A DNA stretch of 35,736 bases from a virus (lineage: Duplodnaviria > Caudoviricetes), in the IMG/VR virus record IMGVR_UViG_3300025610_000072, positions 1-35,736 of that record; one strand, written 5' to 3'. Positions 384 to 35,049 of this stretch are shown piece by piece (within the stretch, counting starts at the first letter, position 1; each line of letters starts with the position of its first letter). The translations under genes and the position numbers were made by a program. Under the pieces are notes generated by a model. The model worked only from the letters and a program-made list of their open reading frames with translations, made no database searches and was not told the origin of the DNA.

Positions 384-860
384 ATGACCAGCGCATTTAA
401 CAAAGCGTGGATTATTCTCAAAGAGCGTCCTTACAGGCGTGGTCGTATGCGAACAGGGACTCCCGATTACGCTCGTGTACCGCAGATGGATGAAGAGTCC
501 AGTTATGCAAACATTTCAATTCCTCGTGAATCACCTATCCACGGCTTAGAGCCATTCGGAGAAGATAGGCCGATGGGCACAAGCCTACCTATGCCGATGG
601 CAGATGATGTTCTTGAGCCAATCCGTCAACGCCAGCGTGAACAGGAACCATTCAACCCATTCACGGCAAAACCATCCCCACCACCAATGCGTGAAGAAAG
701 AGGCCCACCGATGGGAGGCACCGAAGGTATGTCTCGTGGCCCAATGCGTTCCCGCAAGCGAGGCGACCCTGCCCGAAATCCGAGATTTGTCCGACCGGGT
801 TTCCGCTCTACTGAAAGTATGCCTATGAGTGATAAATCGGTTGAAAACAGAATGCGATAA
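384..860 (+). CDS. Hypothetical Pro/Arg/Met-rich protein with N-terminal AFNKAWIILK tag
   Basis: ATG 384 is in frame with ORF 312-860 and lies about 25 nt after TTTTATA. It begins with the tag shared across the window. Confidence 0.7.
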   Translation: MTSAFNKAWIILKERPYRRGRMRTGTPDYARVPQMDEESSYANISIPRESPIHGLEPFGEDRPMGTSLPMPMADDVLEPIRQRQREQEPFNPFTAKPSPPPMREERGPPMGGTEGMSRGPMRSRKRGDPARNPRFVRPGFRSTESMPMSDKSVENRMR

Positions 861-898
861 CCGACAAGTTTAATTTCTGCACCGCACTCGGCCTGTAC

Positions 899-1054
899 AT
901 GCTGTTGCCTACACTCTTCATCCTCTCATTCATAGCGGGATTTGTCACAGTGTGGTTTGCCACACCCAACCCTAAAGATACTATGATTTACATTGAAGAT
1001 GAAGAAGCATTTCATCAAGCCTGCTTCAATGGTATGCGGAGGGGAATCCAGTGA
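899..1054 (+). CDS. Small (51 aa) single-pass membrane protein, not in the ORF track
   Basis: Translates as MLLPTLFILSFIAGFVTVWFATPNPKD...GIQ*. TTTAAT lies about 27 nt upstream and the stop overlaps the next start (GTGA). Confidence 0.6.
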   Translation: MLLPTLFILSFIAGFVTVWFATPNPKDTMIYIEDEEAFHQACFNGMRRGIQ

Positions 1055-1884
1055 AGGTAACCGTTTACGAGGTTGGTCCTCGTGACGGTTTACAAGCACT
1101 CAAACAACCCGTTGAAACCTCCACCAAAATAAAACTCATTGATGCGTTGTACAGTGCAGGCTTGAAAAACATTGAAGAAACGAGTTTCGCTCATCCAAAA
1201 CTTGTGCCACAAATGGCTGATGCTAACGAAGTATTTCGTAAGGGTAGCGTTCTCATCATGAACAAGCGTGGTTACGACCGTGCGGTAGCCGCTGGTGCTA
1301 CAAAATTCAGCATTGTGTTTTCACCCTGCGAAACTTTCAACATGAACAACATGGGGAAGACTCGCAGTGAAATTGTACTTATGTACAAGACATTTTTAGA
1401 CAAAGTACCCAAGAAAAATGTGCGAGTGTACATTAGCATGGCGTTTGGTTCGCCTTACAGCGGAATACCTAACATTTCAACACTTATTTCGTGTATTCGT
1501 GATGCGAAAATGTTTGGTCGCACTGTGGTGTTTGCTGACACTGTGGGTGCAGGCACTCGCAAAGAAGTACAACAATTAGCGGAACTTGCGAAAAACGAAC
1601 ATATGAAAGCCGCTTTACATCTTCACCACAGAGGAAATGAAGAACAAGCATTACAGTTGATTCGTGCAGGTTTGTTTAGCGGCATAAAAGAATTTGATTC
1701 AAGTATAGGTGGTCTTGGTGGCTGTCCATTTACCGAAAACAGCGGAGCAAACATCTCTACCGAGTCACTTGTGCGTCATTTAACCGCTTGGGGTTTTAAT
1801 TGCGGAGTAGATAAAGCGGGATTAACCAATGCCTCAAAAATTGCTGAGGAAATAAAACTTAATGAATTAAAGACTGTGATTTAA
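1051..1884 (+). CDS. hmgL: Hydroxymethylglutaryl-CoA lyase (DRE-TIM metallolyase family)
   Basis: YEVGPRDGLQ, SFAHPKLVPQMAD, FADTVG, HLH metal ligands and GGLGGCPF...GANISTE all match HMG-CoA lyase motifs. Confidence 0.9.
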   Translation: MKVTVYEVGPRDGLQALKQPVETSTKIKLIDALYSAGLKNIEETSFAHPKLVPQMADANEVFRKGSVLIMNKRGYDRAVAAGATKFSIVFSPCETFNMNNMGKTRSEIVLMYKTFLDKVPKKNVRVYISMAFGSPYSGIPNISTLISCIRDAKMFGRTVVFADTVGAGTRKEVQQLAELAKNEHMKAALHLHHRGNEEQALQLIRAGLFSGIKEFDSSIGGLGGCPFTENSGANISTESLVRHLTAWGFNCGVDKAGLTNASKIAEEIKLNELKTVI

Positions 1885-3319
1885 GCATACGCCAAGCAAT
1901 GTCTATTGGTTCACCTTTTCGCACCAAACTTTCATTTCCGTTTTCATCGGTTACAATAACATACAATCCCGAATCTAACATTTGTTTTGTATAATTTTCG
2001 TTTCGGTTGATTTTCTTGGGTTCTGCGCTTACGCCTGCATCACCATCGTCAGCCGGAGGGTTTGATTCTTGAAATTGACGATATTGCCTTGCGATAGGAC
2101 TACCTTCGGGATACATTTGCAAAGGGTTCATGTCGGCCATTGGATTTTGACCGGACACTCGTGCTTCTGCCTGTGTTTGGGTCATGGAACGGCCAAGTCC
2201 TTGTTGTTTCATTCTTTCAAAGTCAATTTGTTGTAGGAAATTACCAAAATGGCGACGGTTTGCTTCATTAGCAATAATTCGCCGGTTGCGTTCAATTTGC
2301 GATACTCCAACTGGCACATCTGCTTCATCGTAGTATGCTTGGCGGGCTTCATCATCAGCAATGTCGTAAAAATCATGTGAGTAGCGATTTACGGTATGGG
2401 TTGCTTTTATTGTTTTCCTGTTCCCCGCTTGTGTTGCCGCATCATTCGCAGTGACAAGAGAAAACTTTGGATGTTCGGAAGGCTCATCACGAGCATGTCC
2501 GGCGGCAAAAACAGGGTGATATTGCTCTACAATCCTACCCTTGTCGGTTTTAACCGTGCTTCTTATCGGTTCATCTGTACGAAGAAGAGGAAGCGCAATA
2601 CCGGGAAAGTTTTCGGGATGTGGAACACCTTTTTCATCATTACCACCCGGAATTGATTTTTGATTTCCTCGCTCAATCAATTCGGGATTACGATGAAGCA
2701 TCAAGTCCATGTACGCAAGTGCCAAATCTCGTGGAGTGAGTTTTTCAGCACCTTTTGGCATTTTTTGGTCGGGTTTGTACCTTTGACTGAAACGCATATC
2801 GTGATGTCCTAAATCGTGAATACTCACATGTTTTAGTTTCATTTTATTAGCGTGACTGATGATAAGTTCCTTGTCAAAAGCATCAAAGCCGGGAAGAAAC
2901 GACCACGCTTTGAGCAATCGCCACGACATGTCCATGGCCTCACCCGTAGCGATTTGTGAGCCAGCCTTGGCTTTGTCGGCCATTTGCTGACCACGCTCTT
3001 CCATGCGTTGCTGGCTGGCTTGTTGTGCTTGTGCGTAAGCGGCACCGGCATCAGCCGCTTTTTCACCACGAGATTTTACTTTATCAGTAAATGATTGCTG
3101 ATTGTTGGCTTCGGTGATGTTTTCACCACCAGTAAGTGCATCACCCACCTTACCGCCTGTTTTAGCACCCATAAATCCACCAACAATACCACCGAGGACT
3201 GTGCCAACGCCGGGAACAATGCTTCCAAGTGCCGCACCACGGGCGGCACCGCTGGCCGCACCACCTACAGTTCCAACAGCCTGTCCAATGTCTCCTTTGA
3301 CAAGGACACGCCTGCTCAT
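1859..3319 (-). CDS. Hypothetical protein with N-terminal glycine-zipper segment and two copies of the tag (GEAMDMSWRLLK, GEPIDIAWRMLK)
   Basis: 486-aa ORF starting MSRRVLVKG, with GAALGSIVPGVGTVLGGIVGG. Tags at 2909-2944 and 1880-1915. Confidence 0.8.
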   Translation of the reverse strand: MSRRVLVKGDIGQAVGTVGGAASGAARGAALGSIVPGVGTVLGGIVGGFMGAKTGGKVGDALTGGENITEANNQQSFTDKVKSRGEKAADAGAAYAQAQQASQQRMEERGQQMADKAKAGSQIATGEAMDMSWRLLKAWSFLPGFDAFDKELIISHANKMKLKHVSIHDLGHHDMRFSQRYKPDQKMPKGAEKLTPRDLALAYMDLMLHRNPELIERGNQKSIPGGNDEKGVPHPENFPGIALPLLRTDEPIRSTVKTDKGRIVEQYHPVFAAGHARDEPSEHPKFSLVTANDAATQAGNRKTIKATHTVNRYSHDFYDIADDEARQAYYDEADVPVGVSQIERNRRIIANEANRRHFGNFLQQIDFERMKQQGLGRSMTQTQAEARVSGQNPMADMNPLQMYPEGSPIARQYRQFQESNPPADDGDAGVSAEPKKINRNENYTKQMLDSGLYVIVTDENGNESLVRKGEPIDIAWRMLKSQSLIH

Positions 3320-3343
3320 GCTACACGCATGAGGCGGTATGTC

Positions 3344-3349
3344 TTTAAA
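3344..3349. promoter_or_regulatory. Putative bidirectional archaeal TATA box (TTTAAA)
   Basis: Palindromic hexamer centred about 25-27 nt from both divergent ATGs (3319 on -, 3371 on +). Confidence 0.6.
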
Positions 3350-3370
3350 TTATTTCATCATGGAACGAGC

Positions 3371-4669
3371 ATGGCGAGGGTGCTGATAAGCAAAGCAACT
3401 CTCGCTGATTTTGGTGTACCTCGCCAAGAAGTGGCTGTGCGCCAGCCTATGCCTACTGAACAGCAAATTAGTGATGCAGTGTTAGGGGATGAAAATATGG
3501 GGTTATTGTCACCCGAACAATATGGTATGCGAATGCCTTTACTTGAGCGTGAAAAATTTGAGGATAGCAACAAAAGAACATCCGAAAAACATTATCCCGG
3601 TGAAGCGGGGAAGAAATTTTTACAAGGTATGAATCTTGAAGGTGCACTGGCAAGCGGAATTGCAATGAGAGAATTTCCAGCAATAGGAATGCAAGACCAC
3701 CATGAGCAAATACCATTTTTGCGTGATTATTTTAGTAGGCAAACTACTTTGCCCGAACATGATTGGAGTTACCATACAGAAGGCCCGTATTACGATGAAG
3801 ATGGAAACATTTTGCCGGGTCAAGTACCTCCTGTAAATGCTGTTAAGTTAATGGCAGATAAAGACATTCAACATATAGGACAAGGGAGTGGTTTTGGGTT
3901 AAAACCACTTCCACATAGTCTTGTTAATGAAAAGTGGGAAAAAGAACAAATGCGACCGGGAGAAAGGTTTCCTGCTGAAAATATCGCTTTTGTTGGCCCG
4001 AATATAGAAAATGATATAGCCCGAAATGCCGCCGCTAATGTTTCTTCAAGAGATAGAAGGGGATATGTAGGAATAAGGGGTTTTGGTAGGCCAAGCGATA
4101 GAGCATTTGCAAGAGATGCAAGAAGAGAAGGTAGAGAAGCAGGATTTACATCTGCTATACCACCGGAACGCTTAGTAGGTGCCATGCCTGCATCAAAAGC
4201 CAGCACAGGGGGTAGGGATAAAGAACCGACACGAAATATGATGCCCGTATTAGTTCAAAATAAGTCTTTTGAGCAAAAACTAATGGAAGCGGTAGAAGAG
4301 GGACGAATCCCTGTAACGGAAGTACCGATTATAATGGCTAATCAAAGAAAAAGCCGTAAGTTATTTCCGAATGAAGAAGGGTGGAAATCGTTTGATGCAA
4401 GAGAAAAGGCAAAGAAAGATATGCGACCTTTTGTAGATGAAATAGACCATATGTTTGAGGGAAGCCTACCAGTTTCATGGAAAGATGCACATTTTGGTCT
4501 TGAAAATCCTATTTTGACAGATGCCGAAAAAGAAAATTACATGCGTCAAATAAAGGAACAAATGTATGATGACGAAATTGAAGACATTCATCAGTGGACA
4601 ACTATGGATGATTGGGCTAAAAGAAACCCAGTGCTTCATCCAAAACATAACAAGGTGAGATTTTCATGA
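3371..4669 (+). CDS. Hypothetical protein, probable start MARVLISKA
   Basis: In frame with ORF 3095-4669. ATG 3371 avoids overlap with the opposite gene and carries the shared N-terminal RVL..K tag. Confidence 0.75.
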   Translation: MARVLISKATLADFGVPRQEVAVRQPMPTEQQISDAVLGDENMGLLSPEQYGMRMPLLEREKFEDSNKRTSEKHYPGEAGKKFLQGMNLEGALASGIAMREFPAIGMQDHHEQIPFLRDYFSRQTTLPEHDWSYHTEGPYYDEDGNILPGQVPPVNAVKLMADKDIQHIGQGSGFGLKPLPHSLVNEKWEKEQMRPGERFPAENIAFVGPNIENDIARNAAANVSSRDRRGYVGIRGFGRPSDRAFARDARREGREAGFTSAIPPERLVGAMPASKASTGGRDKEPTRNMMPVLVQNKSFEQKLMEAVEEGRIPVTEVPIIMANQRKSRKLFPNEEGWKSFDAREKAKKDMRPFVDEIDHMFEGSLPVSWKDAHFGLENPILTDAEKENYMRQIKEQMYDDEIEDIHQWTTMDDWAKRNPVLHPKHNKVRFS

Positions 4670-7023
4670 AGCGTGTGTTGGTCAAGAAGGCTTTGCCTCG
4701 GCATTGGTCAAAGGATTTTGATACCACTGAGGACTTACGCAATGTGTTAAGACAGGCTCGTTTGATGTCTCTTGAGGATGCAAAAAACATTGAAAACATA
4801 CCACTAAGACCCGATGTAAGAGATTGGGAATTGAGTCATACTGCTCAAGGGATGAAGAGCATTATTCCGGGTATCCAAGGGGGTAAAATTACAGACCAAG
4901 GATATGTGGACGAAGGTGGAGCATTTACTTATCCGCCTCAATTACAATCGTTTTTACCTATGATAAACCCCGATGCAAGAATGAGTGTCACTATGCCCGA
5001 CATACCCGGCTCAATGGGTAAACCAAGTGGAAGGCCAAGTGTCTTAGTTGGTTCCTTTGAAAAGCCGGAGTTTCACGCTACTCAAAAAGAAGGGCGTGTA
5101 CAAACCGAAGGATTCATGCCGGGTGGTTTTGACCCCTCTCAAGCAGTTTTGCTGACAGAACCCTCTCGTGCTTTTGCAAGACAAGAGGTTCCAATGGCTA
5201 TACAAAACCTTGTAGGAGGAAAAATGAAAGATTATGCTCCCGGTACTTTTGGTTATGATGAACCTGTAGGAAGAGCGATGGAATCATTCAACATTTTACC
5301 ATATAGTACAGAAAATCCATTATCACAGTTTTCGGGGTGGGGTCAACCCCGAACTGTTGATGATGAGTTCCGACTAAGCGAACCAATGGACATCGCCTTC
5401 CAACTCCTCAAAGATGATAACATGGAGGAATACATGGAAGATGCGTTTGATTTAGGTTCCCCATTATTGTCTTATGATGAATTACATGGTAAGCAAAAGC
5501 AAATTGTTGATACTATTGCTGGTGCACCATCTTCTTACTGGAATGACCCCGAAAGCGGTGAGTTAGAAACTGAAAACTACAGCGGTATGTTTCAACAGGA
5601 TGAACACCACCTTTATCCCGATGAAGCGTTTGATGAATACCTCCGTTACATTCAACATTTCCATGACGCATCAGCAAAAATAAGTGCCATGCCACATGAA
5701 GAGCAAATGAAAATTATGTCTCATTATTCTAATCAACATATGTTACCTAATGAGGAGAAAGAAGAGCACCCACTCCATCCTGCAAAAGTAGCGTTGGATA
5801 AAATGGCGGAAGAGTATGAACATTGGAATGTAGAAGACCCTCATGGTGATTTTTACAACCGGTACAATGAGCCAAAGTCGTCACAGGGAGGAGCCTCAAG
5901 GATGGCCGGAGGATTTCACCGTAGCGAACCAATGGATATTGCTATGCGATTGCTAAAGCGTGACAAGATATATGACCCCAATGCTGAAAACAAAGGTCAA
6001 GAAGGAGTTGACTGGCATCCGGGTGAAGAAGGAGTTGATTGGGATTCAGCAGTTTCATCATCACTTCATCCGAGTCATGATTTAACACAAAGGCATCCTT
6101 TTGACTATGATATGCACGAGTACGACCATCATGCTCAAAAATTACTCAACCTTATGCGAAACCGTGATGTTGCACACCTTCAAAATAATGAAAATCCAAT
6201 GACCGAAGATGAGCAATTTGATTTAATGGATGCACAACAAAAATTACAGGCTTCTATTCCTAAAAATACACATTTTCCAAGTATTCAAAATGCCGTTGGA
6301 TATGATAAAGACGGAAACAAGATAAGCACATTTGGAGACGGAAGACCAAAGTTTAACGAAGGTTCTCCACGCTATCAAGAACTAATTGGTGATAGACCAA
6401 CAGTTCCTATTCACACAGAAGGTTCTTTTTACGGAGTTCCATTCAATGAGGAAACAGGCTTTACTCGTAGCGAACCAATGGACATCGCTATGCGGTTGTT
6501 GAAAAATGAACCTGCTGATTACGCAGACACTTATCAGCAAGTCCGAAACAACATTGGTGCCGATGGCGAATATATGACTGACGAAGAATTAAACGCTATT
6601 GACGAGCGTTATTCGGAATTGCACGATGATGAAAAACACCTTGAAGAGTATTATAACTTATTGGAGGCTATTGAACTTGAAAAGAAAAGACGAGCAGAAG
6701 GGTCATTTGATGGTATAGGCCACAACGAAGAAACAGGTTTTACTCGTAGTGAACCAATGAACATCGCCTTCCAACTGCTCAAGGAGCGTGTAAGCCCCGA
6801 AGCCAAGCGGCATAAGTTGGAGTACGACAAGAAGTACGAGTCCAGCCCGGAGCGGGTGAAGTATCGGGAGGAGTTGAACCGTGAACGCCGTCGCCGTGGT
6901 ATCTATGGAAGCCACGACCATAAGGACATTAGCCACACTAAGGGCGGCAAATTGACCCTTGAAGGCGAACATGAAAACAGGGCACGGCACTTCAAAGACA
7001 AGGGAACCCTTCGGGAGTTGTGA
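4666..7023 (+). CDS. Modular (polyprotein-like) protein with four SEPM[DN]IAxxLLK repeats and a C-terminal basic HNH-like module
   Basis: 785 aa with AGGTGA RBS. Repeats at 5377, 5923, 6469 and 6748. C-terminus contains YREELNRERRRRGIYG..HKDISH...EHENRAR. Confidence 0.8.
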   Translation: MKRVLVKKALPRHWSKDFDTTEDLRNVLRQARLMSLEDAKNIENIPLRPDVRDWELSHTAQGMKSIIPGIQGGKITDQGYVDEGGAFTYPPQLQSFLPMINPDARMSVTMPDIPGSMGKPSGRPSVLVGSFEKPEFHATQKEGRVQTEGFMPGGFDPSQAVLLTEPSRAFARQEVPMAIQNLVGGKMKDYAPGTFGYDEPVGRAMESFNILPYSTENPLSQFSGWGQPRTVDDEFRLSEPMDIAFQLLKDDNMEEYMEDAFDLGSPLLSYDELHGKQKQIVDTIAGAPSSYWNDPESGELETENYSGMFQQDEHHLYPDEAFDEYLRYIQHFHDASAKISAMPHEEQMKIMSHYSNQHMLPNEEKEEHPLHPAKVALDKMAEEYEHWNVEDPHGDFYNRYNEPKSSQGGASRMAGGFHRSEPMDIAMRLLKRDKIYDPNAENKGQEGVDWHPGEEGVDWDSAVSSSLHPSHDLTQRHPFDYDMHEYDHHAQKLLNLMRNRDVAHLQNNENPMTEDEQFDLMDAQQKLQASIPKNTHFPSIQNAVGYDKDGNKISTFGDGRPKFNEGSPRYQELIGDRPTVPIHTEGSFYGVPFNEETGFTRSEPMDIAMRLLKNEPADYADTYQQVRNNIGADGEYMTDEELNAIDERYSELHDDEKHLEEYYNLLEAIELEKKRRAEGSFDGIGHNEETGFTRSEPMNIAFQLLKERVSPEAKRHKLEYDKKYESSPERVKYREELNRERRRRGIYGSHDHKDISHTKGGKLTLEGEHENRARHFKDKGTLREL

Positions 7024-7031
7024 GTATTCAC

Positions 7032-11758: not shown

Positions 11759-13030
11759 ATGCCTATGGGTCGTGGTTCCGATACTCGCATGTATGGTCCT
11801 CGTAGTGAGTCGGACAAAATGTATTCCTCAGCAAATGAGGATGAAACAAAATACAATCCTGCCGACCCCGAATACAACGAGCAAAAGCGTGAAGAAAAGA
11901 AGCGCAAAATTGAGGAAAAGAAGGCCAAGCGTGCAAAAATTAAGCACATCAAAATCAGTGCTAAGGAAGGGCTAAGTGGAGAAGAATCTCCTACACCTCT
12001 TGATGACGGTAACAAGCGTGATGATGAGCGTGAGTTGAGCCTTCAAGGTGGCCCTGCTGGAAGTCGGGGTACACTTCTTGACCTCGCTACTGGGGCAAAG
12101 AGTGGAACAGGCTCAGCCATGAGTCCCGGCCTTCCAATCGCTATGAGCGAGCCAATGAAGGATGCTTGGAGTACGCTACTTAAGCGTGAAACCCCACGGT
12201 CAATTTCGGGGCGACGGCGGCGTGAGGCACGCCAACAGTTTCGTCCATCCACTGGTCAATTCAAAACACCACCCGGTGGTATGAGCGGTGGGGCTGGTGC
12301 TACGATGCGCCGTTTCAAAGCACAGATGCGTGGTATCAAAAGTGGTAAAAAAACAGGGCTGATGAAGCCTCACCTGTCGGTTGAGATGAGCCACCGTGGT
12401 ATTCAAACCAAGCAACCGCTATCCAAAGACCCGCAAAAGTACACGCAGTATAAAGGACAATCTGAGGCTCGCAAAATCTTAGGTGGCGCACGCACTACAT
12501 TCTCACCACACGCACGATACGGTGCCCGCTCCAACTATGCTGGTCCTACAGGTGGAGGACGACTTAGTGGTTTAATGGCTGGTCAAAGTGGACAAATGGC
12601 CCGTCCTGCTCTTCGTCGTATGCGCCGACCTCGTATGCCTCGTATGCCTCGTATGAGCGCACCACGACCACCTACTCCGCCTATGATGCCACAAATGCAA
12701 TCCAGTGTACCCAGTATGCCTGCCCCGTCATCTACAATGATGATGAGTGAAGAGCGATACCGTAGTGAAATTCTCAAAGCACGCAACAGCCTTCATCGTA
12801 TTGAGTTGCTTAATCTCATGCGACGGCTTATTCAAGCCAAAGAGCGTGAAGCCAAAATTAAGAAAAATTTAACGGCCACTGATGCCGCAGATTTACCCGG
12901 ACATCCTGTGGGAGTTAAGCCGAGTGATGATGAAGACCCCGATGGACCTACAGAAAATCTTGAAACAGATGCTAAAACATTTGGACTTGACCCCGCAGGG
13001 GCAATCATAGGTCGTGGTGGTAGCAGATGA
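11759..13030 (+). CDS. Basic low-complexity protein with internal SEPMKDAWSTLLK tag
   Basis: 423 aa. The tag at 12146-12184 is followed by a strongly Arg/Lys-rich segment. Confidence 0.8.
   Translation: MPMGRGSDTRMYGPRSESDKMYSSANEDETKYNPADPEYNEQKREEKKRKIEEKKAKRAKIKHIKISAKEGLSGEESPTPLDDGNKRDDERELSLQGGPAGSRGTLLDLATGAKSGTGSAMSPGLPIAMSEPMKDAWSTLLKRETPRSISGRRRREARQQFRPSTGQFKTPPGGMSGGAGATMRRFKAQMRGIKSGKKTGLMKPHLSVEMSHRGIQTKQPLSKDPQKYTQYKGQSEARKILGGARTTFSPHARYGARSNYAGPTGGGRLSGLMAGQSGQMARPALRRMRRPRMPRMPRMSAPRPPTPPMMPQMQSSVPSMPAPSSTMMMSEERYRSEILKARNSLHRIELLNLMRRLIQAKEREAKIKKNLTATDAADLPGHPVGVKPSDDEDPDGPTENLETDAKTFGLDPAGAIIGRGGSR
12629..12655 (+). repeat. Tandem repeat (CCTCGTATG)x3 encoding PRM
   Basis: Read directly from the sequence. 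Confidence 0.9.
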
Positions 13031-14979
13031 TTCGTGTTGGCCGTCCTCTCAAGAAGGCATGGAGCCTTGTAGGGCACGGGCCAGCAGGGGCGCAGATTTT
13101 CCGCAACCCACCACCACAGGCTTTCCGCCCCGAAGGAGAGGATGACCTCCCTGCACACGCTCACGATGGTGTAGGCAACCTTCTTCCCGGCCAGTGGGTG
13201 GAGGGTGTTCATGGTCAAAAAACATATCAAACAGATTATGGTGGTTTTCACCACCCTATTGATGCGGTAGCACACAAACTTGGTGATTTCCTCCGTGCAA
13301 GAGGATTTAACATTCCGCCCTCCGAAGTCATTAACGCCGCCATCAATGAGTTCAATGACACGCATTCGCACGGCGATGCACACGAATTGGGAGACTTTGA
13401 CTCTCCCGAATGGCGCAAAATTAGGGCTTCGGATATGCCCGGAGGGGATATAACACGAAAGCGTAACACTATGCCTACTCGTACTCAAGGTGGTACCAAA
13501 ATCACCATGCTTACCAACAGAAATCAAAACGAAACCCCTGTTGGAAAATTCGTTGAAGGTGGCTACATTCCGTTTCACCGTAATATAACTCACCAATTGG
13601 AAGACATGGGTATTCCATCACAAGAAATACGACAAGGATTAAAGATTCTTGACTATCCTTGGTTACAACCTCATCATCTTGTACCGAATAGATACCTTGT
13701 GTCACATCAAAAGCAACACGGTGCTGATATTGACGAGGCTATGATGGGGCGTGCCCCCGAAGGATATTTTGGTGACACAGAGGCTGTTCACACATGGGAA
13801 GTTTTGCATCACCTCCCCGATGCTTTCTTTTACCCCAATGTAAAAGAAAACTTGCAAAAGAAAGGTAAGCAACCCACAGGGTTGTACAATGCCGCTCATT
13901 CCATGATTGACAAAGCCTTGCAACAGGGGATTGAACATATTCCCAATGTCAATGTCACCATCAACACCAACACACTTGGTAGTCCACAAATGATTAACCG
14001 ACCGCTCCACGAAATACTTCAAACGCCCGATTTGCGAGAGGCTTTGGTCAAAGACATGGCACATGTGCCCGCTATGATGTTCCTGTTTGGTCGTAGTGGA
14101 CAAGGTGACTTCAAGCGATTGTACGACCACATGATGGAAAAGTATGGTGCATCCGAAGACATGCTTTCAGCGAGTGAGCAAGCCAAGTACCTTTCAGCGG
14201 GTGCAAAAGGTGGAAAGGGAATGCACGAATCAGCCAAGCGTATGTTTGCTCTTGCTCGTGCTTCGGGTGAAGGAAGTGAAGAAGGTCGTAGCCGATTTGG
14301 TGAGCATCCTATTTCTGCTGACGAATTACAAGCAATGGGTATGTATCACAGTGACAATCTTATGAATCAAGTGGACAGGTTTCGTGGTGTTCTTGAGGCA
14401 TTGGCCGACCATCAAGCCAGTGCACAGGGGCATCAAGTCAAGCGAGGTATTGGTGACATCCCTACCACCGCCCGTCCGGGTATGTCCATTGGTGGCTATC
14501 CCGAATTAAATGCTGAAACGGGGGAATACTCTATGCCTCCTCTTGACCCTCACATGGATGCGTATTTCCATCAAGTTCATGATTTTGCACCAACGGAGGC
14601 GTTTGACCCCTCCCTTACACAGTCGCCCGAATCGCAGGTTCTTTCTTCACCTGTTCCACCCGCACCATCTCCGGCGGGCACTTCTCCGGCTCCAAGTTCG
14701 GTTCGGGCGGCACCTTCCTACCCTCACACTGCAAGACAGCAGTTCCAGCAGATGCGACCACAAGTAGGACAACTTGACCCCGTGCAGTTCCGACAACTGC
14801 TTGAACAATCGGGCCGTCGCAGACCTATGCCGATGAGTGGTGCCCCTCTCTCACCCTACGAGGAAAGAATGCAAGGTGCCCTTGCAGACCCTCAACAACA
14901 ATTCTTGAGTGATTATTTCAAATCAAGCGATTCTGTAATGGATGAAGTAATGCGTATAGTCAAAGGTGGACGACGATGA
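13027..14979 (+). CDS. Hypothetical His-rich protein, probably virion-associated
   Basis: 650 aa with ATGA overlaps at both ends. C-terminal SSDSVMDEVMRIVK is a weak tag copy. Confidence 0.8.
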   Translation: MIRVGRPLKKAWSLVGHGPAGAQIFRNPPPQAFRPEGEDDLPAHAHDGVGNLLPGQWVEGVHGQKTYQTDYGGFHHPIDAVAHKLGDFLRARGFNIPPSEVINAAINEFNDTHSHGDAHELGDFDSPEWRKIRASDMPGGDITRKRNTMPTRTQGGTKITMLTNRNQNETPVGKFVEGGYIPFHRNITHQLEDMGIPSQEIRQGLKILDYPWLQPHHLVPNRYLVSHQKQHGADIDEAMMGRAPEGYFGDTEAVHTWEVLHHLPDAFFYPNVKENLQKKGKQPTGLYNAAHSMIDKALQQGIEHIPNVNVTINTNTLGSPQMINRPLHEILQTPDLREALVKDMAHVPAMMFLFGRSGQGDFKRLYDHMMEKYGASEDMLSASEQAKYLSAGAKGGKGMHESAKRMFALARASGEGSEEGRSRFGEHPISADELQAMGMYHSDNLMNQVDRFRGVLEALADHQASAQGHQVKRGIGDIPTTARPGMSIGGYPELNAETGEYSMPPLDPHMDAYFHQVHDFAPTEAFDPSLTQSPESQVLSSPVPPAPSPAGTSPAPSSVRAAPSYPHTARQQFQQMRPQVGQLDPVQFRQLLEQSGRRRPMPMSGAPLSPYEERMQGALADPQQQFLSDYFKSSDSVMDEVMRIVKGGRR

Positions 14980-19387: not shown

Positions 19388-20683
19388 ATGTGGGGGAGTA
19401 TGTTAATCGGGGATGAATATGATTCACCCCTGCAAGTTGAGGATGAGTTTTCAAACACAGTTTTGAAGAATCTTGCTCAACATCCCTTTTTTCAACCACA
19501 AGATGTGCCATTAAATACTTTAAATATAGTCAAAGAAGATAAAGACGCAGTAAGCCTTTTTCCAAAAAACGGAGATGGGTGGTTTGAGAGTAAATATGGT
19601 ACAGATGCTAATACAATTATTCGGATGTGTCGCAAAATGCGAAGACATGATAAGGTGTTTAAATCCGAATACGATAACATCATCAAAGATATACGCCAAG
19701 TAAAAGCAATGGAAGTTGACGCTACCATTAAATCTCTTACATGGGCGGTTGGAATGGAAGATGTAATTCGCAACATAGGGCTTAGTGACCGTTCTTTGAA
19801 AGCACTTCGTAAGTTTGGTGAATTAAGAGGAACAAGTTTGCAAAAAGCATGTCAACAATACCTCAAAGCCATGACTGTATTACAACATCTTAATGAAAAA
19901 ATGGATTGGGACACTGATGACCAGCAAAATTGGGTTGATGCTAACAGCATGAAAAAAGATGCTCAAAAAATGTGGCGCAATACATTGCATCAAATTGATA
20001 ACTTGAAGAAGACCGATGTTGCCGCTTTGGAATACGCATCAAATCTTCTTGGAAAAGAAGGGGCACTTGGTAGTCGTGAAATTGTACGACGAGGGTATGG
20101 AGTTCTTAACAAATCCATGACACCTGCAAAAATGAGTTCTCTTCTCAAAATGTACGGTGAAGAGGTTGATGTTTACCGAGGAAGTAGCAATAGTACATAT
20201 GTAAAACAAGGCACAAATGGTTTCATTATCAAAGATATGTGGGCGTACACCGCTGGTTTTGTAGATGCTGACGGTAGCATTTTCATTTCCGAGCGAGGTG
20301 ACCCCCGTGTGACTATTGTAGCCAGTGGAGATAACGGCAAAGCGCATTGCGAAGAGTTGCAGAAAATGATTGGTTGTGGTCGCCTTGTGTCCGACCAAAA
20401 ATTGGCTAAAAACACCATTAAACCAGTTCATCGGTTGATATTTTCTTCTAAGCAAGATATTCATGAAATTCTTAAAGGGGTCTTACCACATCTTAAACTC
20501 AAATCGTTACAAGCAAAGGCCGTTTTAAATTATATTCAAGAAAAGGACAGTATGAGAAAAACGCAACTTTACCAACTGGTAACATACAATAATTGGAAAG
20601 ACCATAAAAGTAAAGCCACTTCTCTCTTGAACAAGTGGGGCGTTGATTTAGACACTATTGGTGGATATGCGGAGGGACTATGA
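19388..20683 (+). CDS. Protein with C-terminal LAGLIDADG endonuclease-like domain
   Basis: WAYTAGFVDADGSIFIS near 20246 and ILKGVLPHLKLKSLQA. The long N-terminal helical region is unassigned. Confidence 0.8.
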   Translation: MWGSMLIGDEYDSPLQVEDEFSNTVLKNLAQHPFFQPQDVPLNTLNIVKEDKDAVSLFPKNGDGWFESKYGTDANTIIRMCRKMRRHDKVFKSEYDNIIKDIRQVKAMEVDATIKSLTWAVGMEDVIRNIGLSDRSLKALRKFGELRGTSLQKACQQYLKAMTVLQHLNEKMDWDTDDQQNWVDANSMKKDAQKMWRNTLHQIDNLKKTDVAALEYASNLLGKEGALGSREIVRRGYGVLNKSMTPAKMSSLLKMYGEEVDVYRGSSNSTYVKQGTNGFIIKDMWAYTAGFVDADGSIFISERGDPRVTIVASGDNGKAHCEELQKMIGCGRLVSDQKLAKNTIKPVHRLIFSSKQDIHEILKGVLPHLKLKSLQAKAVLNYIQEKDSMRKTQLYQLVTYNNWKDHKSKATSLLNKWGVDLDTIGGYAEGL

Positions 20684-22443
20684 TGGCTGAAGAACAAGGA
20701 AGAATATCTCGTTTTTTATCTGCGTTAGGAGGGCCATTCCGTCGTAAAGAATCCCCAACACCAACCATGCCACTTTGGACAAGTGGAATCCAAGAACCTG
20801 TGATGGCTCAAGGAATTACAATTCCAGCACTTTACGCAGTGAGTAATGAATCACTTATTCTTCGTACAGTTCTTGCGAAACTACGCCAAGAAATGTTTCG
20901 TCGTGGTTATTATTGGGAAAAGAAATTTGCACGCAAGTGTACTGTATGTGATGAAGAATATCAAAGCGAAGTAGATGCCTGTGCAGAATGTGGGGGTGAG
21001 GTTCGTAAACCCGACAATGACGAACTGACATACTCAAAATGGCTTCTTAAACAAGAAAATAGCATGGAGCAATCTTTCATTCATGTGCTTAATGAAATAG
21101 AAAGTGACCTCAATGTTGTAGATGACGCTTTCATGATTCTTGTTAAGGAGTATTTTATTGACCCCGAATCAAAAGAAGTCGTCTTTTACAGGGTAAAAGA
21201 AATAATTCGTGGTGACCCCATATTCATGCGTATTGTCGCTGACAAGCGTGGTGTTCGTGGTGGACGCTTCAAGATATGTCTTATTCATCGTGATGAAGTC
21301 AAAACACACGCTGAAGATGACACATGTGAACACTGTGGTGCCGAACTGCATGATGTACATTATGTAAACATGGCTGGTAGTGGTAAAACGCAATACTTTG
21401 CTGAGGGAGAGGTTCTTCATGTAAGTAAATACAAACCCTCAAAGTTGTACGGTCGCTCACCTGTAAATACAATGTGGCGACAAGCCATGACTTTGACAGC
21501 GATGGATAATTACATTTACACTGCATATCAAAAGCGAAGGATGCCGAAAGGAATTGTATCAGTCACTACAGATAATTTAGAATCAATGAAGTCTTTTTGG
21601 AAGGCCGTTGATGAGAAAATGGAGCGTGACCCACACTACATTCCAAAAGTTGGCATTGAATCGGCTACAGGTCGTGGTGGTGTAAATTGGATTAAATTCA
21701 TGGACACTTTAGAAGAGATGCAATATATTGCAGTTCGTGATGAAATTCGTAATCGTATGGCCGCTTACTACGGAGTATCGTCTGTATTCATGATTGATAG
21801 TGGTAAGTCGGGTGGATTAAACAATGAGGGTATGCAAATACTTGTTACCAACCGTGCAGTTGAATTTGGACAAAAGGTGTACACTGAGGTTTTGTTTCCA
21901 CGCCTTCTCAAACAACTCAGTGTGAATGATTGGAAATTAACACTGTACCCTAACGAGGAAGAAGATGAAATTACTCGTTTGCGTCGTGACTCCGAAGAAC
22001 TCAATGTAGCACAACGGATGGCTCAACTTGGCTTTATGCCCGAACTCATTGAGGATACTGCTAACCGTGATATTCGGTTTACTTACAAGCGACCCGAACC
22101 TCAACCACCGCAACAAGGTGCACCTCCGGGCGGTATGCCTCCGGGCGGTATGCCTCCGGGCGGTATGCCTCCGGGCGGTATGCCTCCGGGTATGCCTATG
22201 GGGATGCCTCCCGGTGGAGGGCCACAAATGCCTCCACAGTTGGCTCAACAGATTATGCCTCCACCTCAACCCGGCGGTCAAGGCGTAGGACTCCGTAATC
22301 GTGGTCCTGCGGCACCTCAGCGAAGAGGAAGCATGGGTAGCGGTGCGCCGTTTACAAATGTTCAACAGCGTGGGCCGCAACCGTCCATGCAACAAAACAT
22401 AAGCAATGCACTTTTGGACGCAAGACGGCCTCGTGGTCAATAA
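20680..22443 (+). CDS. Portal protein with Zn-ribbon-like insertions and Pro/Gly/Met-rich tail
   Basis: EVLH...LYGRSPV, RMPKGIV and IRNRMAAYYGVS are HK97-type portal motifs. It lies between terminase and protease. Confidence 0.88.
   Translation: MMAEEQGRISRFLSALGGPFRRKESPTPTMPLWTSGIQEPVMAQGITIPALYAVSNESLILRTVLAKLRQEMFRRGYYWEKKFARKCTVCDEEYQSEVDACAECGGEVRKPDNDELTYSKWLLKQENSMEQSFIHVLNEIESDLNVVDDAFMILVKEYFIDPESKEVVFYRVKEIIRGDPIFMRIVADKRGVRGGRFKICLIHRDEVKTHAEDDTCEHCGAELHDVHYVNMAGSGKTQYFAEGEVLHVSKYKPSKLYGRSPVNTMWRQAMTLTAMDNYIYTAYQKRRMPKGIVSVTTDNLESMKSFWKAVDEKMERDPHYIPKVGIESATGRGGVNWIKFMDTLEEMQYIAVRDEIRNRMAAYYGVSSVFMIDSGKSGGLNNEGMQILVTNRAVEFGQKVYTEVLFPRLLKQLSVNDWKLTLYPNEEEDEITRLRRDSEELNVAQRMAQLGFMPELIEDTANRDIRFTYKRPEPQPPQQGAPPGGMPPGGMPPGGMPPGGMPPGMPMGMPPGGGPQMPPQLAQQIMPPPQPGGQGVGLRNRGPAAPQRRGSMGSGAPFTNVQQRGPQPSMQQNISNALLDARRPRGQ
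22123..22194 (+). repeat. Tandem repeat (CCTCCGGGCGGTATG)x4 plus partial copy, encoding PPGGM
   Basis: Read directly from the sequence. Confidence 0.95.
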
Positions 22444-29546: not shown

Positions 29547-30917
29547 ATGCTCGCAGTTCAACGACCCAATGACGGTATCACTCTTCTCAAGAGTGGTAAC
29601 GATTTGGTTGTTGCTGGTTACGCATCGGTTGAACTTGTTGACAAGCAAGGCGACCTTATTACTCGTGGTGCTTTGAGTGATGCCTTTGATGGCTTCATGA
29701 AGAGCGACAAATACCGAAATGTGCAACTGGCTCACTCCAACATTCAAGTTGGGGAAGTAATTGACAGTTACATAGATTCTAACGGACGAATGTGGAAATC
29801 CGAATGTGATGACACAGGAATGTTCGTTGTAGTACAACTCCGCAATGATATAGAGAAGGCTCGTGAAGTAGCCGCTGAAATCCGCAAGGGCAACCTTCGT
29901 GGGTTTTCTATTGGAGGACAAGCATTCAAGCGAGTGCGAAAGTCCGACATGGAAAAAGGCGACTACCAAGAGATTTCAAAAATGGAGTTGCATGAGGTGA
30001 CGATTTGTGAAAAGGGTATCAACCCCGAAGCGCAATTCCGAATTTTGAAGGAGGATACCACTATGACAGACGAAAACAGTGATTTGACAGGAATTATGTC
30101 ACGCCTTGAAGCCCGATTGGATGCTATGGAAAAGGGAGAACTACCTCCTGCTCTTAAAGAATCTATGAAAGACAGCAAGGCTGATGAAGAAAAGAAGCCC
30201 GAAAAAGAAGAAGGTGACGAAATGAAAGATGAAAAGAAAGAAAACCCCTTTGCAAAGGGAGAATACAGCGATGTTATTTCCTCTGAGTATCTATCTTGGA
30301 TGGAAAGCACTCTCAAGTCGGCTGGTGTTGATACACTCGCCGCTCGTGACCACTTTGACGCTCTTGAAAAAGCACAACTTGGTGGCTTTGATAACCCCGA
30401 TGCCGTGGACGGTGCTGACTACTTCGGTGGTCAAGTCCGTGGTCGTGGACAAGAAGGAGGTTCACCATCTACTGGTGCAATCAACGCAATCACAGCATCC
30501 GGTGGAAAAACCCCATCCGGTGCTCTCGGACCAGCCCAATTGTCTAAGGGTTACCTCAACGCTGAAAATGTGAGTGAGGCTGACCTTGAAGCCGCTTACG
30601 AAGTGTACAAAGCCGCCGCATCGGAACAAACTTTCCGAAACGACCTTGAAGGACACTTTGCAAACCGTTTCCAACAAGAAATGCAACTTGCAAAGTCCGA
30701 GGCTGAAAAAGCCGCTTTTGATGCACGAGCACCTCTTACGGAAATCGTGAAGTCCATTGAGCAACTTTCGGAGCGTATTGACAATCTTGGTGCTGGAACT
30801 TCTTCCACTATCCAAAAGTCAGTGTCCACTATTGATGTCCCTTCCACGCAAGACCTTGCCAACATGGGTTGGGATGAGGTACACTCGCTTGCACAGCGAA
30901 CCTTGCGAGGGGCTTAA
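29547..30917 (+). CDS. Prohead maturation protease (HK97-type) fused to scaffold domain
   Basis: VAGYAS...DKQGD, catalytic-type His (LAHSN), GFSIGG Ser and LHEVT...NPEA, then an acidic coiled-coil C-half. Directly upstream of the capsid gene. Confidence 0.92.
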   Translation: MLAVQRPNDGITLLKSGNDLVVAGYASVELVDKQGDLITRGALSDAFDGFMKSDKYRNVQLAHSNIQVGEVIDSYIDSNGRMWKSECDDTGMFVVVQLRNDIEKAREVAAEIRKGNLRGFSIGGQAFKRVRKSDMEKGDYQEISKMELHEVTICEKGINPEAQFRILKEDTTMTDENSDLTGIMSRLEARLDAMEKGELPPALKESMKDSKADEEKKPEKEEGDEMKDEKKENPFAKGEYSDVISSEYLSWMESTLKSAGVDTLAARDHFDALEKAQLGGFDNPDAVDGADYFGGQVRGRGQEGGSPSTGAINAITASGGKTPSGALGPAQLSKGYLNAENVSEADLEAAYEVYKAAASEQTFRNDLEGHFANRFQQEMQLAKSEAEKAAFDARAPLTEIVKSIEQLSERIDNLGAGTSSTIQKSVSTIDVPSTQDLANMGWDEVHSLAQRTLRGA

Positions 30918-30945: not shown

Positions 30946-32046
30946 ATGGCACGAGATTACATTAGAAACATTACTGATATGGAACGATACTACTATGGCG
31001 CAGGAAACGCTATGGGTTACTCCTACTCCGGTAGCGAGTTGCTCAAGGCTGATGCACCTATGCTATCAACCACTGCTGGTACATACCAAGCAATCTACGG
31101 ACGCAAAGTTTGGAGTCAGTTGAACCAAGAGTTCAACGCCTTCTCTATTCTACCAAAGCGACCATGGGAGCGCAGTGGATGGCGAGTTATCACCGAGCGT
31201 CCTTCCTTCTCTGTTGGTGGCGGTGTTGCAGAAAACGCAACTCTTCCCGACACCACCAAACCTACCTTCCAACACATTGCCGCAAAGCCAAAGACTGTTG
31301 TTCACACCTTTGACATGAGCGAAACCGCAATGTTCCTTTCCGACAAAGATGACGGACTTGGCGACATTCGTGCAATCCTTAAGGAAGAAATGGGTAAGCA
31401 CCACGCAGAACACATCAACAAGATGCTCACTGTTGACAAGGCTACTGTTGCCGGAAACGACTTTGAATCCCTTGACCGTGTTACTACTGGGGCTTCCGCA
31501 GGTTCCGCAGAAGACATGTACTCCATTGACCGAAGTGCAAACTCTTGGTCACTTGCAGAACATGATGAAAACGGCGGTACTGACCGAAACCTTTCACTTG
31601 ACCATTTGGACACTTTGTTCCAAAAGACATGGACTCGTGGTGGAAACCCAAAGGTCATCCTCACTGGATACGACACTTTGATGCGTCTTCAACAACTTCT
31701 ACAATCCCAACAACGATTTATGGAAGAGAAGCGTGTTACCCCTACCTACAACGGTGTTAAGGGTGTTCCCGGTCTTGAAGCAGGATTCATTGTTGCAACA
31801 TACAATGGTGTCCCAATCATCCCATCTAAGGATGTGCAACCCGACACCTTGAGCCGTATGTATTTCCTTGACACTGATTACTTGTACTTTAGTACAGCAA
31901 TTCCAACCCAATACTTTGAGAGCGGTATTGAAACTGGCGACCCATTCGCCATCAACCGCCTCGGACAAGAAGGAATGTATCGTACTATGGGTGAACTATG
32001 GACGACTTTCTTCGGCGGTCACGGCTCTATCCGTGACCTCAAGTGA
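30946..32046 (+). CDS. Major capsid protein (HK97 fold)
   Basis: Position after the protease, 366 aa, GGVAEN, YNGVPIIPS and MYFLDTDYL, with a strong RBS. Confidence 0.92.
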   Translation: MARDYIRNITDMERYYYGAGNAMGYSYSGSELLKADAPMLSTTAGTYQAIYGRKVWSQLNQEFNAFSILPKRPWERSGWRVITERPSFSVGGGVAENATLPDTTKPTFQHIAAKPKTVVHTFDMSETAMFLSDKDDGLGDIRAILKEEMGKHHAEHINKMLTVDKATVAGNDFESLDRVTTGASAGSAEDMYSIDRSANSWSLAEHDENGGTDRNLSLDHLDTLFQKTWTRGGNPKVILTGYDTLMRLQQLLQSQQRFMEEKRVTPTYNGVKGVPGLEAGFIVATYNGVPIIPSKDVQPDTLSRMYFLDTDYLYFSTAIPTQYFESGIETGDPFAINRLGQEGMYRTMGELWTTFFGGHGSIRDLK

Positions 32047-33236: not shown

Positions 33237-33440
33237 ATGGCGGCACTAACCAAGATTGGCGTAAAAGTGCTCGGTCCTTTCTCCCCGAAGGAGTTTAGTG
33301 ACACGGCAACTTTGCAAGGAACCATTCAAGCGGCTATCCAAGCAATTGCTGATGCGAGTAGTACCAGTTCTGTAATTGACAGCGAGTTAGTTCCTGTTCT
33401 TGGGAATTATTTTGTTATGGTAACCTATCAACTCGCATGA
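33237..33440 (+). CDS. Small hypothetical protein
   Basis: GAGGTGA RBS; fills the gap in the operon. Confidence 0.7.
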   Translation: MAALTKIGVKVLGPFSPKEFSDTATLQGTIQAAIQAIADASSTSSVIDSELVPVLGNYFVMVTYQLA

Positions 33441-33451
33441 GGTGAGTTGGT

Positions 33452-33751
33452 ATGGGTTTTGATGTTAGAAGCATTGATTTGAGCGACATTGTTCGTGCTG
33501 GCAAGCAAGACCGCAAGGCTGATTATCAGTACGGTGGTGATGTGGTTTCAAAGCCCGAAAAGCCACTTGAAGGTGTTACTCGTTCCCAACGAAACCGCAA
33601 TCAAGAAATAGGTGACATCCTTAACATTGGTTCGGGCACTCGTTGTACGCACTGCGGATTCCTTCATTTCATGTGGAGGGCAACCTGTGGTGCTTGTGAA
33701 AAGCCTATGGAATACAACTTAGGAAAGCGTGACGAAAAGAAGAGGTTATGA
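33452..33751 (+). CDS. Zinc-ribbon protein
   Basis: CTHC...CGAC with a GAGGTGA RBS. Confidence 0.75.
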   Translation: MGFDVRSIDLSDIVRAGKQDRKADYQYGGDVVSKPEKPLEGVTRSQRNRNQEIGDILNIGSGTRCTHCGFLHFMWRATCGACEKPMEYNLGKRDEKKRL

Positions 33752-35049
33752 ATATGAAAGTTCTAATTAAAGCAATGCGACCACACCGACAAAAAGTTCT
33801 TACAGAAGATGGCGAAGAAATGCGCCTTCAACAGTGGGCTAACAAAGCGGCCAGTTCTGCACTTCGTGGTGCAGGTGAGGTTGCGAGCGGAGAACAATTT
33901 ACTCAAGCCCGTGACGCTCTCATGCGTGAGGCTGTAGCCAATCCCGATGAGCATGGACTCAAGTTCATGGGCGAGCGTGTGCCCTTTGAAGGTCAAACCT
34001 TGGAAGAGTCGCTGAGCGAACCCGATGTAGAGGGCGAGCGAGCAATAATTGACAATCAGTTCAATCAAGACCCTATGAACGACCCCGACTTCAAAGAAGA
34101 CATGACTGAGGATGAATCATTTGAGTTGGCTGAAAAACTTGACCGTAAAATGCCTAACATCTTTGATGGGCAGGGCAAACTTCGCCAAACGCTTCCGCAA
34201 GGCGGTAAAATGAATGAAAACGACATGCACGATGAAGCACTGGCTGATTGGGAAGCCCGTCAAAGCGACATTGACTTTTCTCGTGAGCAAGGACATACCG
34301 AAGGATTTGAAGGTAAGCCGTATCATGATATGGAACAAGAAGAGTTGGATGCTGACAAAAAGCGTTTTTATGGTATGTACCCTCATTTGAAACCTCAAGA
34401 AGAAGGTGGTTTTGACCCCGATGCTGAGGCTGAACACCTCCGTCGCATCATGAACTCTCGTGATGTTGCTATGCGTGATGCTTTAAGTCTATTGAAAAAT
34501 CTGCAATTTCCTGCTGATGCTGGTAATAGACGGGAGTTCCAACGAATGCCGGGTGAAAAACACGGCCCTAATGACAAGTTTTTCCGATATGGTGAAAATC
34601 CGTATGTACCAAAAGGACACGGTGAGAAACCAATGAGGGCAGAAAGACCGCATCCCTACAGTCAATTGGGGGCTAATGTAATGGAGGATTACCAACTCAT
34701 GCAAGAAGAACCCGAAGACAACCAACTTCTTACCCCCGATGAATTAGCATTTGCTCAATCCATTGCTGAAAATGACGGGCAAATGCCTCCTGCGGCAAGA
34801 ATGCCAGCACCTACACTACGACAAGGAATGAATCAGTATAATCCACCCATTAAGACCTCCCGCCAAGTTCCTATGCGTGATGCTTGGAGCGTGTTAAAAA
34901 ATGATTTTTTTAATCCACCGGAAGTTCCGTGTGCTAAATGTGGAAGGCCGACTGAACCAATGATGTATTACGGTTCTAATCAAATGGGGCCACAGCACAA
35001 CACGCTTTGCGAAAAATGTGAAGACATCCCAATGATGGAAGACCAGTGA
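33748..35049 (+). CDS. Modular acidic protein with N-terminal KVLIK tag, two internal tags and C-terminal Zn finger
   Basis: SRDVAMRDALSLLK (34456-34497), SRQVPMRDAWSVLK (34858-34899) and CAKC...CEKC. Confidence 0.8.
   Translation: MNMKVLIKAMRPHRQKVLTEDGEEMRLQQWANKAASSALRGAGEVASGEQFTQARDALMREAVANPDEHGLKFMGERVPFEGQTLEESLSEPDVEGERAIIDNQFNQDPMNDPDFKEDMTEDESFELAEKLDRKMPNIFDGQGKLRQTLPQGGKMNENDMHDEALADWEARQSDIDFSREQGHTEGFEGKPYHDMEQEELDADKKRFYGMYPHLKPQEEGGFDPDAEAEHLRRIMNSRDVAMRDALSLLKNLQFPADAGNRREFQRMPGEKHGPNDKFFRYGENPYVPKGHGEKPMRAERPHPYSQLGANVMEDYQLMQEEPEDNQLLTPDELAFAQSIAENDGQMPPAARMPAPTLRQGMNQYNPPIKTSRQVPMRDAWSVLKNDFFNPPEVPCAKCGRPTEPMMYYGSNQMGPQHNTLCEKCEDIPMMEDQ

Follow-up and report, generated by a model that had tools for sequence, protein, structure and literature searches.

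The sequence analysed here, referred to as the window, comprises the whole 35,736 nt of the IMG/VR virus record IMGVR_UViG_3300025610_000072 (Duplodnaviria; Caudoviricetes) and encodes a magrovirus virion module, in which a short lysine-ending peptide, hereafter the tag, recurs in otherwise unrelated proteins. Magroviruses infect abundant uncultured ocean archaea, and the majority of their genes are unannotated. Groups A and B are recognised by a halovirus-like capsid protein and a ligase among the head genes (PMC5434244). Both features are found in the window: a halovirus-like capsid protein, 36% identical to that of the halovirus HVTV-1, is encoded together with portal, protease and terminase, and an ATP-dependent ligase lies within the structural module as the C-terminal domain of the 1936-residue product of open reading frame (ORF) 23697-29507 (PF01068 match, E 3e-5, just below the curated cut-off). 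Because an HVTV-1-like capsid protein and a ligase amid head genes occur together, we regard the window as magrovirus A/B-like. The hosts, Poseidoniales archaea, are taken from the literature and not derived from the window (PMC5434244). The head genes relevant to the tag are as follows, with a slash marking the putative cut.

15976..17466, + strand: terminase large subunit
20680..22443, + strand: portal protein
29547..30050, + strand: S78 prohead protease domain with His63 and Ser121, flanked by ITLLK and FRILK
30051..30917, + strand: fused scaffold with conserved Phi-x-K/[SAG] sites
30579..30611, + strand: mid-scaffold helix ADLEAAYEVYK, tag-like in one register
30946..32046, + strand: major capsid protein, with a leader ending ELLK/AD at residue 34

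The tag is 11 residues long and has the consensus [ESTN][PA][MF][DE]xA[WF]x[LVI]LK. The window holds 12 strong copies in seven ORFs and three weak copies in three further ORFs; in addition, a second, beta-type leader, (R/K)VL(V/I)xK, begins five window ORFs. These elements, with the proteins that contain several of them, are listed below.

390..422, + strand: N-terminal tag SAFNKAWIILK, ORF 384-860
1880..1912, - strand: C-terminal tag EPIDIAWRMLK, followed by 6 residues, ORF 1859-3319
2909..2941, - strand: internal tag EAMDMSWRLLK, ORF 1859-3319
3296..3319, - strand: beta-type leader MSRRVLVK, ORF 1859-3319
3371..3394, + strand: beta-type leader MARVLISK; ORF 3095-4669 probably in fact starts here
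4666..7023, + strand: five-module polyprotein with beta-type leader MKRVLVKK, four internal tags and a final phrog_6437 module
5380..5412, + strand: internal tag EPMDIAFQLLK, predicted helix
5926..5958, + strand: internal tag EPMDIAMRLLK
6472..6504, + strand: internal tag EPMDIAMRLLK
6751..6783, + strand: internal tag EPMNIAFQLLK, ahead of the phrog_6437 module
12149..12184, + strand: tag longer by one residue, EPMKDAWSTLLK, in conserved ORF 11759-13030
14932..14964, + strand: weak C-terminal copy SVMDEVMRIVK, ORF 13027-14979
14976..15002, + strand: beta-type leader MSKKVLIRK, ORF 14976-15971
17504..17536, + strand: N-terminal tag KAIEEAWNFLK, ORF 17495-17944
17980..18012, + strand: variant tag GMGTAWDALEK immediately ahead of a phrog_27331 module (KLCP...)
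18141..18173, + strand: weak N-terminal copy MDFDYVMAFLK, ORF 18138-18341
18341..18373, + strand: N-terminal tag TPMDEAWLVLK, ORF 18338-18853
18873..18887, + strand: beta-type site VLIVK immediately ahead of a DUF5872 module
33748..35049, + strand: three-module protein with beta-type leader MNMKVLIK and two internal tags
34465..34497, + strand: internal tag VAMRDALSLLK
34867..34899, + strand: internal tag VPMRDAWSVLK

Four copies lie in ORF 4666-7023 and two each in ORFs 1859-3319 (- strand) and 33748-35049. An initial annotation, made from the window alone, had listed 12 strong copies, all of which are present within long ORFs, and three weak ones, which are also real (refined-profile scores of 9.8 for 14932-14964, under 3 for 17980-18012 and 5.8 for 18141-18173). 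Its positions match, save that the two copies in ORF 33748-35049 had been placed 9 nt upstream of their actual starts, and its figure of about ten tagged proteins is reached only if weak copies are counted, the strong ones being confined to seven. A regular expression for the tag matched the window proteins nine times, compared with a mean of 0.58 and a maximum of 4 over 2000 shuffles, and a leave-one-out profile returned scores of 10-29 for 8 of 8 distinct seeds, compared with 0.39 windows above 10 per shuffle. Conservation is mainly at the protein level, as had been claimed, given that synonymous codons at the tag positions are mixed with only a mild bias. Likewise, the proposed lysine-ending helix agrees with an AlphaFold prediction from a 60-row tag alignment, in which a helix exactly spans PMDIAFQLLK (residues 11-20, mean predicted local distance difference test score 86). 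Among homologues of ORF 11759-13030, 64 of 70 contain a window scoring >8 on the tag profile. The C-terminus of ORF 13027-14979 also carries a PIP-box-like sequence, QQFLSDYF.

The tag profile was applied to 161 loci: the window itself and 160 others, each found through either the capsid gene or a GTPase-like gene as anchor. This yielded 526 matches (340 distinct 11-mers) compared with 5 in shuffled proteins, and at least one match in 122 of the 161 loci. A degenerate DNA pattern of the tag found 122 viral loci and 2 loci from a prokaryote genome collection; with the tag masked, 107 of these 124 match magrovirus genes, both "bacterial" contigs included, and the 17 loci without a magrovirus match are 336-1129 nt long. 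The two contigs (L309 and L310), which have both the tag and the GTPase cassette of magroviruses, come from bacterial metagenome-assembled genome records and are probably misbinned virus DNA. Three complete relatives have 14, 17 and 14 tag sites (two of the last 14 in ORFs unselected by the gene caller), as counted with profiles whose training excluded their own loci, close relatives possibly being among the training loci. These genomes were divided at their strand switches, once the matches had been seen, into two arcs, one holding the genes for PolB, SNF2 helicase and thermosome (early side) and the other those for head and tail (late side). Tagged genes number 33 of 164 on the late side and 0 of 198 on the early side, early and late denoting position and not timing. 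The relatives' tags mostly lie upstream of the terminase gene, and some follow capsid or tail genes. The RNA runs X17 and X18 represent parts of 1800-7300 solely through contigs, which are uninformative on timing. Scanning 150 distant protease-scaffold proteins for the tag gave five windows above 9, two of them above 13. No description of such a motif was found in a literature search largely confined to openly available main texts, magrovirus papers included, and word finds in the accessible text of PMC5434244, PMC8651126, PMC11706807 and PMC12999244 returned none. Overall, the tag is real and family-wide, and it is apparently undescribed in print.

In the window virus and its relatives, the tag heads or joins unrelated modules, either singly or strung into polyproteins. 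The 626 distinct contexts divide into 248 with the tag at the N-terminus, 319 with it inside the protein and 53 with it at the C-terminus, the other 6 lying at contig edges; the earlier reading had overlooked that internal joints make up over half of the tags, that some tags are C-terminal, and that the beta-type leader is interchangeable with the helix, the two substituting for each other ahead of the same modules. The beta-type leader (VL[IV]xK) occurs in 5 of 156 genes on the late side and in 0 of 187 on the early side. Cutting 583 distinct tagged proteins at their 711 tags gave ∼266 clusters of post-tag modules (median 129 residues), a rough count that contig truncation inflates and missed sites deflate. 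Most of these modules are orphans, with Pfam matches for 10 of 150 (150 of 240 representatives), PHROG matches for 9 of 138 and PADLOC matches for 0 of 25. The rare annotated modules, found at L081:8278-8973, L103:1006-1404, L204:3034-4464 and L239:1816-2445, include DUF3293 with a weak S-adenosylmethionine (SAM) lyase match, an HD phosphohydrolase and SLOG domains, and are candidates for counter-defence.

The modules also change partners at the tag. Among proteins that share their first or last module with ORF 4666-7023 or contain it elsewhere, 41 arrangements were counted; of the 98 multi-member clusters, 25 are found behind N-terminal as well as internal tags; and 490 of 968 alignment ends fall at tags where 139 were expected (3.5-fold). 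A masking artefact was excluded as the source of this excess by a random-mask control, which gave 0.3 times the expected value. Contig joints were seen at tags (6496 to 6776, with 279 nt skipped; 5412 to 6470, with the interval replaced), with short sides of 21-34 nt and related viruses as a possible origin. The five-module ORF 4666-7023 is itself no obvious misassembly, because one contig of run X2, possibly the window's own source, spans 1800-6780 without differences. Tag DNA repeats are present in the window; DNA-level homogenisation of tags was looked for and not seen. New cargo would probably be gained by copying of tag-coding DNA and by insertion, loss or exchange of modules at the tag. 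The tags across 5377-6781 are spaced by 546, 546 and 279 nt; despite the equal spacing, the two 171-residue modules belong to different clusters.

The protease matches PF04586 above the cut-off, with His63 and Ser121 invariant in 138 of 138 aligned domains, and its fold is of the assemblin/gp21 type (matches to herpes protease and gp21; 0 matches in a sequence search of the PDB). The domain ends in F-x-Phi-Phi-K, with Lys in 116 of 138, in agreement with the last five residues of the tag, although the strand concerned belongs to the fold as well. Among the lysines conserved in the scaffold, 7 of 12 lie in Phi-x-K/[SAG], compared with 167 of 2145 early-gene lysines (8%; p ∼1e-5), and the capsid leader ELLK/AD aligns with GMSK/AD of HVTV-1. 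Pro never directly follows the tag Lys (0 of 369 distinct tags, compared with a background of 4.3%). HK97 and T5 proteases reportedly cut after Lys; our literature search returned no paper giving Lys specificity for a related protease. Within the scaffold, the helix D-Phi-E-x-A-Y-x-x-Y-K/AA is conserved, and 344 tags align with it in one register, Lys on Lys. Under the tag profile, this helix ranks in the top 0.5% of background; conversely, only 26% of tags exceed the 95th background percentile of the helix profile.

Three small basic modules (DUF6321, DUF5872 and phrog_27331) are common to magroviruses and bacterial phages, which allowed the residue ahead of the same module to be compared between virus families. 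In the phages P-SCSP2 and Eistla, each module has a gene of its own, located between those for scaffold and capsid, and the products start MAKLC, MSLRRWF and MPAKKY; to our knowledge, T7-like phages of this kind lack a prohead protease. In a podovirus-seeded set, of whose 86 loci 16 were confirmed by capsid/scaffold matches and a few are clearly Glu-type polyproteins, the module started ≤14 residues from the ORF start in 7 of 12 (DUF5872) and 7 of 10 (phrog_27331) cases. In magroviruses, phrog_27331 and DUF5872 begin directly behind the Lys of a tag or of VL[IV]xK, where the stand-alone genes have Met, and Lys stands two residues ahead of the core in 30 of 30 DUF5872 and 42 of 42 phrog_27331 contexts. 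In T4-like cyanophages, all three modules are strung together near the terminase gene (74 of 84 T4-seeded loci confirmed by gp13-18 matches), and DUF6321 lies behind Phi-x-E in 41 of 56 distinct contexts (background 9.8%) and behind Phi-x-K in 2, whereas in magroviruses it lies behind Phi-x-K/[AGS] in 26 of 27 contexts and behind Phi-x-E/[AGS] in 3; the window lengths differ between the two sets, and the module start is Lys-rich. The gp21 protease cuts at L/I-x-E (PMC9026906). The residue ahead of a shared module therefore tracks the protease expected in each virus, and this gives the strongest support for cleavage and for virion location: with some of the same modules behind Glu in T4-like phages and behind Lys in magroviruses, the tag likely marks head loading and cutting by the head protease.

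The cyanophage protein with all three modules is T4-GC119, which in S-SM1 is SSM1_115 (1488 nt, 495 residues). Table S8 of PMC3037559 lists SSM1_115 as detected in purified virions, with 13 peptides entered in its first proteomic column; we assigned the columns to S-SM1 and Syn9 from the main text, the heads being missing in the text copy. The T4-GC119 proteins resemble magrovirus polyproteins in sharing modules, a place near the terminase, a very variable length and a predicted cognate protease motif ahead of modules (PMC3037559), but have Phi-x-E sites and no equally conserved long tag (a [FY]S[ND]WR linker is present in 6 of 74 proteins). The 74 proteins are 92-962 residues long, some being cut by contig ends; such proteins, as at L312:2229-3716, L313:2469-3752 and L314:1146-3695, resemble Glu-jointed polyproteins. 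T4-GC119 is termed a structural or hypothetical protein and, in the accessible parts of PMC3037559, is not described as processed; it is possibly an undescribed gp21 substrate.

Among known systems, the capsid-targeting sequence (CTS) of T4, carried by IPI-III and Alt and removed by gp21, is, like the tag, a short common peptide on divergent, fast-changing proteins (PMC9026906, PMC3012670, PMC5694885). In both, the upstream part is conserved beyond the cut motif, the end is Phi-x-P1 and an assemblin-fold protease is encoded by the same virus. The CTS attaches to the T4 core, its upstream residues serving for targeting and its final ones for processing (PMC9026906), and the tag has the same two-part look. 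However, the two show no sequence likeness; the tag ends Phi-L-K and the CTS L/I-x-E; and over half of the tags are internal and some C-terminal, whereas the CTS is an N-terminal propeptide removed whole. The tag further differs in its 12-17 copies per genome, its ∼266 module clusters, its second interchangeable leader and its archaeal virus setting. The tag therefore likely works like the CTS, the precedent cited in the initial annotation, but because it is not confined to N-termini and lacks the Glu motif, it is not counted as a member of that family. Similarly, the ejection proteins of jumbo phages such as SPN3US have propeptides, many inner-head proteins being cut by the prohead protease at a short motif (gp245, AxE) and the divergent gp53 and gp54 having identical N-termini, although these propeptides are long and N-terminal, the specificity is for Glu, and no shuffled polyproteins are reported in the accessible text (PMC5694885, PMC10052503). 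The N-terminal signal of P1 DarB shows that a short peptide suffices to load cargo into a head but, unlike the tag, has no consensus among Dar proteins and no attached cut motif (PMC9024508). In HVTV-1, head-region proteins 113, 115 and 116 (L179:11910-20698) share a Lys-headed repeat, K[YD][RK][VI]Y[VI]..., perhaps a module marker of its own.

Family-wide conservation, late-side confinement, module exchange at the tag and the Met/Glu/Lys swap ahead of shared modules are observed. On this basis, we consider it probable that tagged precursors join the protease-scaffold core and are cut after Lys during maturation, leaving small modules in the head. The tag would be a two-part signal, in which the helix would attach the protein to the protease-scaffold core as the head assembles, and the final Phi-L-K would be cut by the S78 prohead protease; the freed modules would likely stay in the head and possibly be ejected with the DNA. 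Cleavage after the tag Lys is the best-supported of these steps, for which the comparisons argue strongly. Packaging of the tagged modules is moderately supported; binding of the tag to scaffold or protease is weakly suggested, and ejection and action in the host, the least-supported step, would be a weak expectation. Of the earlier proposal that the tag docks cargo in the prohead and marks a cut after Lys, the Lys cleavage by a prohead protease and the virion-cargo link are thus well supported by comparison, because of the late-side confinement, the conserved Phi-x-K in protease, scaffold and capsid leader, and the Phi-x-E ahead of the same modules in T4-like phages; targeting stands by analogy.

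Several results weigh against this reading. Its support is comparative. Lys is directly followed by A, S or G in only 140 of 369 tags, compared with 9 of the 12 sites conserved in the scaffold, and no enrichment for the site is seen among lysines that follow the protease domain in distant homologues (9.5% versus 8%). Because the cut would fall after Lys, internal and C-terminal tags would, unlike in T4, remain on the upstream module, and only 39 of 343 such tags have a second Phi-x-K/[SGA] closely preceding them. The mid-scaffold helix scores ∼0 under the tag profile, far below the threshold of 13, its likeness to the tag having been spotted after the fact, and the idea that the tag copies the scaffold C-terminal tail, M[SG]W[DE][ED][VI]H, was not supported, the tail having a mean score of -18, a value also reached by 35% of early-gene peptides. 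Although the capsids of HVTV-1 and vir519 are related, the tag system is absent from both viruses (for HVTV-1, in the last 50 kb) except for one stray match. In Table S8, T4-GC119 is undetected in the third column, taken as that of Syn9, which encodes it, and the table as accessible is silent on which part of the protein was detected and on a location inside the head (PMC3037559). Finally, where bacterial phages have homologues of the HD module, the annotation is that of an enzyme and not of a virion protein.

If the helix served for docking alone, copying a scaffold helix and co-assembling with the core or with other tags, Lys would be kept for binding and not for cutting. C-terminal and internal tags would then be expected, 11 conserved positions exceed the needs of a Phi-x-K site, and the register agreement with the mid-scaffold helix would be accounted for, but the exchange of Glu in T4-like phages for Lys in magroviruses, the missing Pro after Lys and the replacement by the non-helical VL[IV]xK are left unexplained, and we judge this account improbable. 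The converse, a high-affinity protease site through which late accessory proteins would be split, activated or timed in the cytoplasm and left unpackaged, fits all of the cleavage-type evidence and the likeness of some modules to soluble enzymes (HD, SLOG, weak SAM-lyase match). It seems less probable still, given that the prohead proteases of T4 and SPN3US act within the prohead (PMC9026906, PMC5694885), that removal of the 248 N-terminal leaders among 626 tags frees few residues, and that the list of virion proteins includes the related polyprotein of S-SM1 (PMC3037559).

The tag could instead be bound by a host or viral factor outside the head, such as a chaperonin, clamp, membrane or secretion machinery, with late placement reflecting timing only. 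An amphipathic helix, the thermosome encoded by relatives and a PIP-like motif (Q-x-[TSK]-[LI]-x-x-aromatic) after 44 of 711 tags would suit such a factor; the Glu/Lys/Met swap would be unexplained, and the narrow DNA-pattern search of the prokaryote collection gave 2 stretches, both magrovirus genes, and no host model, so that the chance of this explanation appears slim. As for a neutral by-product of DNA cassette copying, to which the tag DNA repeats, the mild codon bias and the contig joints at tags might point, it is already largely refuted, and we regard it as very unlikely indeed: residues are fixed while synonymous codons are mixed, tags are always in frame, and 340 distinct peptides retain one helical face.

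Head loading followed by cleavage after Lys can be extended, more tentatively and with odds that we put below even, to an open-ended cargo platform, in which a scaffold-mimicking helix and a protease site would together form a loading address and, in the DNA, a joint for adding, dropping and swapping modules. Each virus might then inject into marine archaea its own set, drawn from hundreds of orphan families, and unrelated ocean viruses might trade modules by refitting the cut motif (Lys, Glu or none). As a sequence rule, the tag picks 12-17 sites per genome and sets module boundaries; it gives several hundred candidate packaged effectors for anti-defence and host-takeover screening, and it predicts protease specificity and exact new N-termini, which are testable without host culture. 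Should the helix prove to be a loading address, the head of an archaeal virus would have a packaging signal that is portable and repeatable. The Glu/Lys/Met swap, in turn, suggests that a processed polyprotein has been overlooked in T4-like cyanophages, and if a shared cargo economy exists, protease specificity and virion cargo would be readable from genomes alone.

Other features of the window were as follows. The protein encoded at 22851-23195 ends in MSWEEIHEIA, which echoes the scaffold tail MGWDEVHSLA and occurs in 43 distinct versions in relatives; it is probably a second scaffold-like, capsid-binding protein. Three small post-portal genes at 22491-23785 have many conserved lysines and several Phi-x-K/[SA] sequences, and are candidates for core proteins. 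In the 1936-residue ligase protein (23697-29507), the first ∼1300 residues, at the N-terminus, are highly variable. Directly ahead of the portal gene, the product of 19379-20683 has a C-terminal nuclease-like domain (phrog_5046) and a LAGLIDADG-like motif, judged by eye. Small Arf/Rab-like GTPase motifs (GLTGKTTL, DVGGQERF and NKAD) are found at 8074-8790, together with 7237-8081 and 10530-10781, among membrane-protein genes; the GTPase-like genes of this region gave 0 Pfam and 0 PHROG matches, and 130 relatives were located. Amid the tagged region, 1051-1884 encodes an HMG-CoA-lyase-like enzyme, whose gene is also present in 3 of 3 complete relatives.

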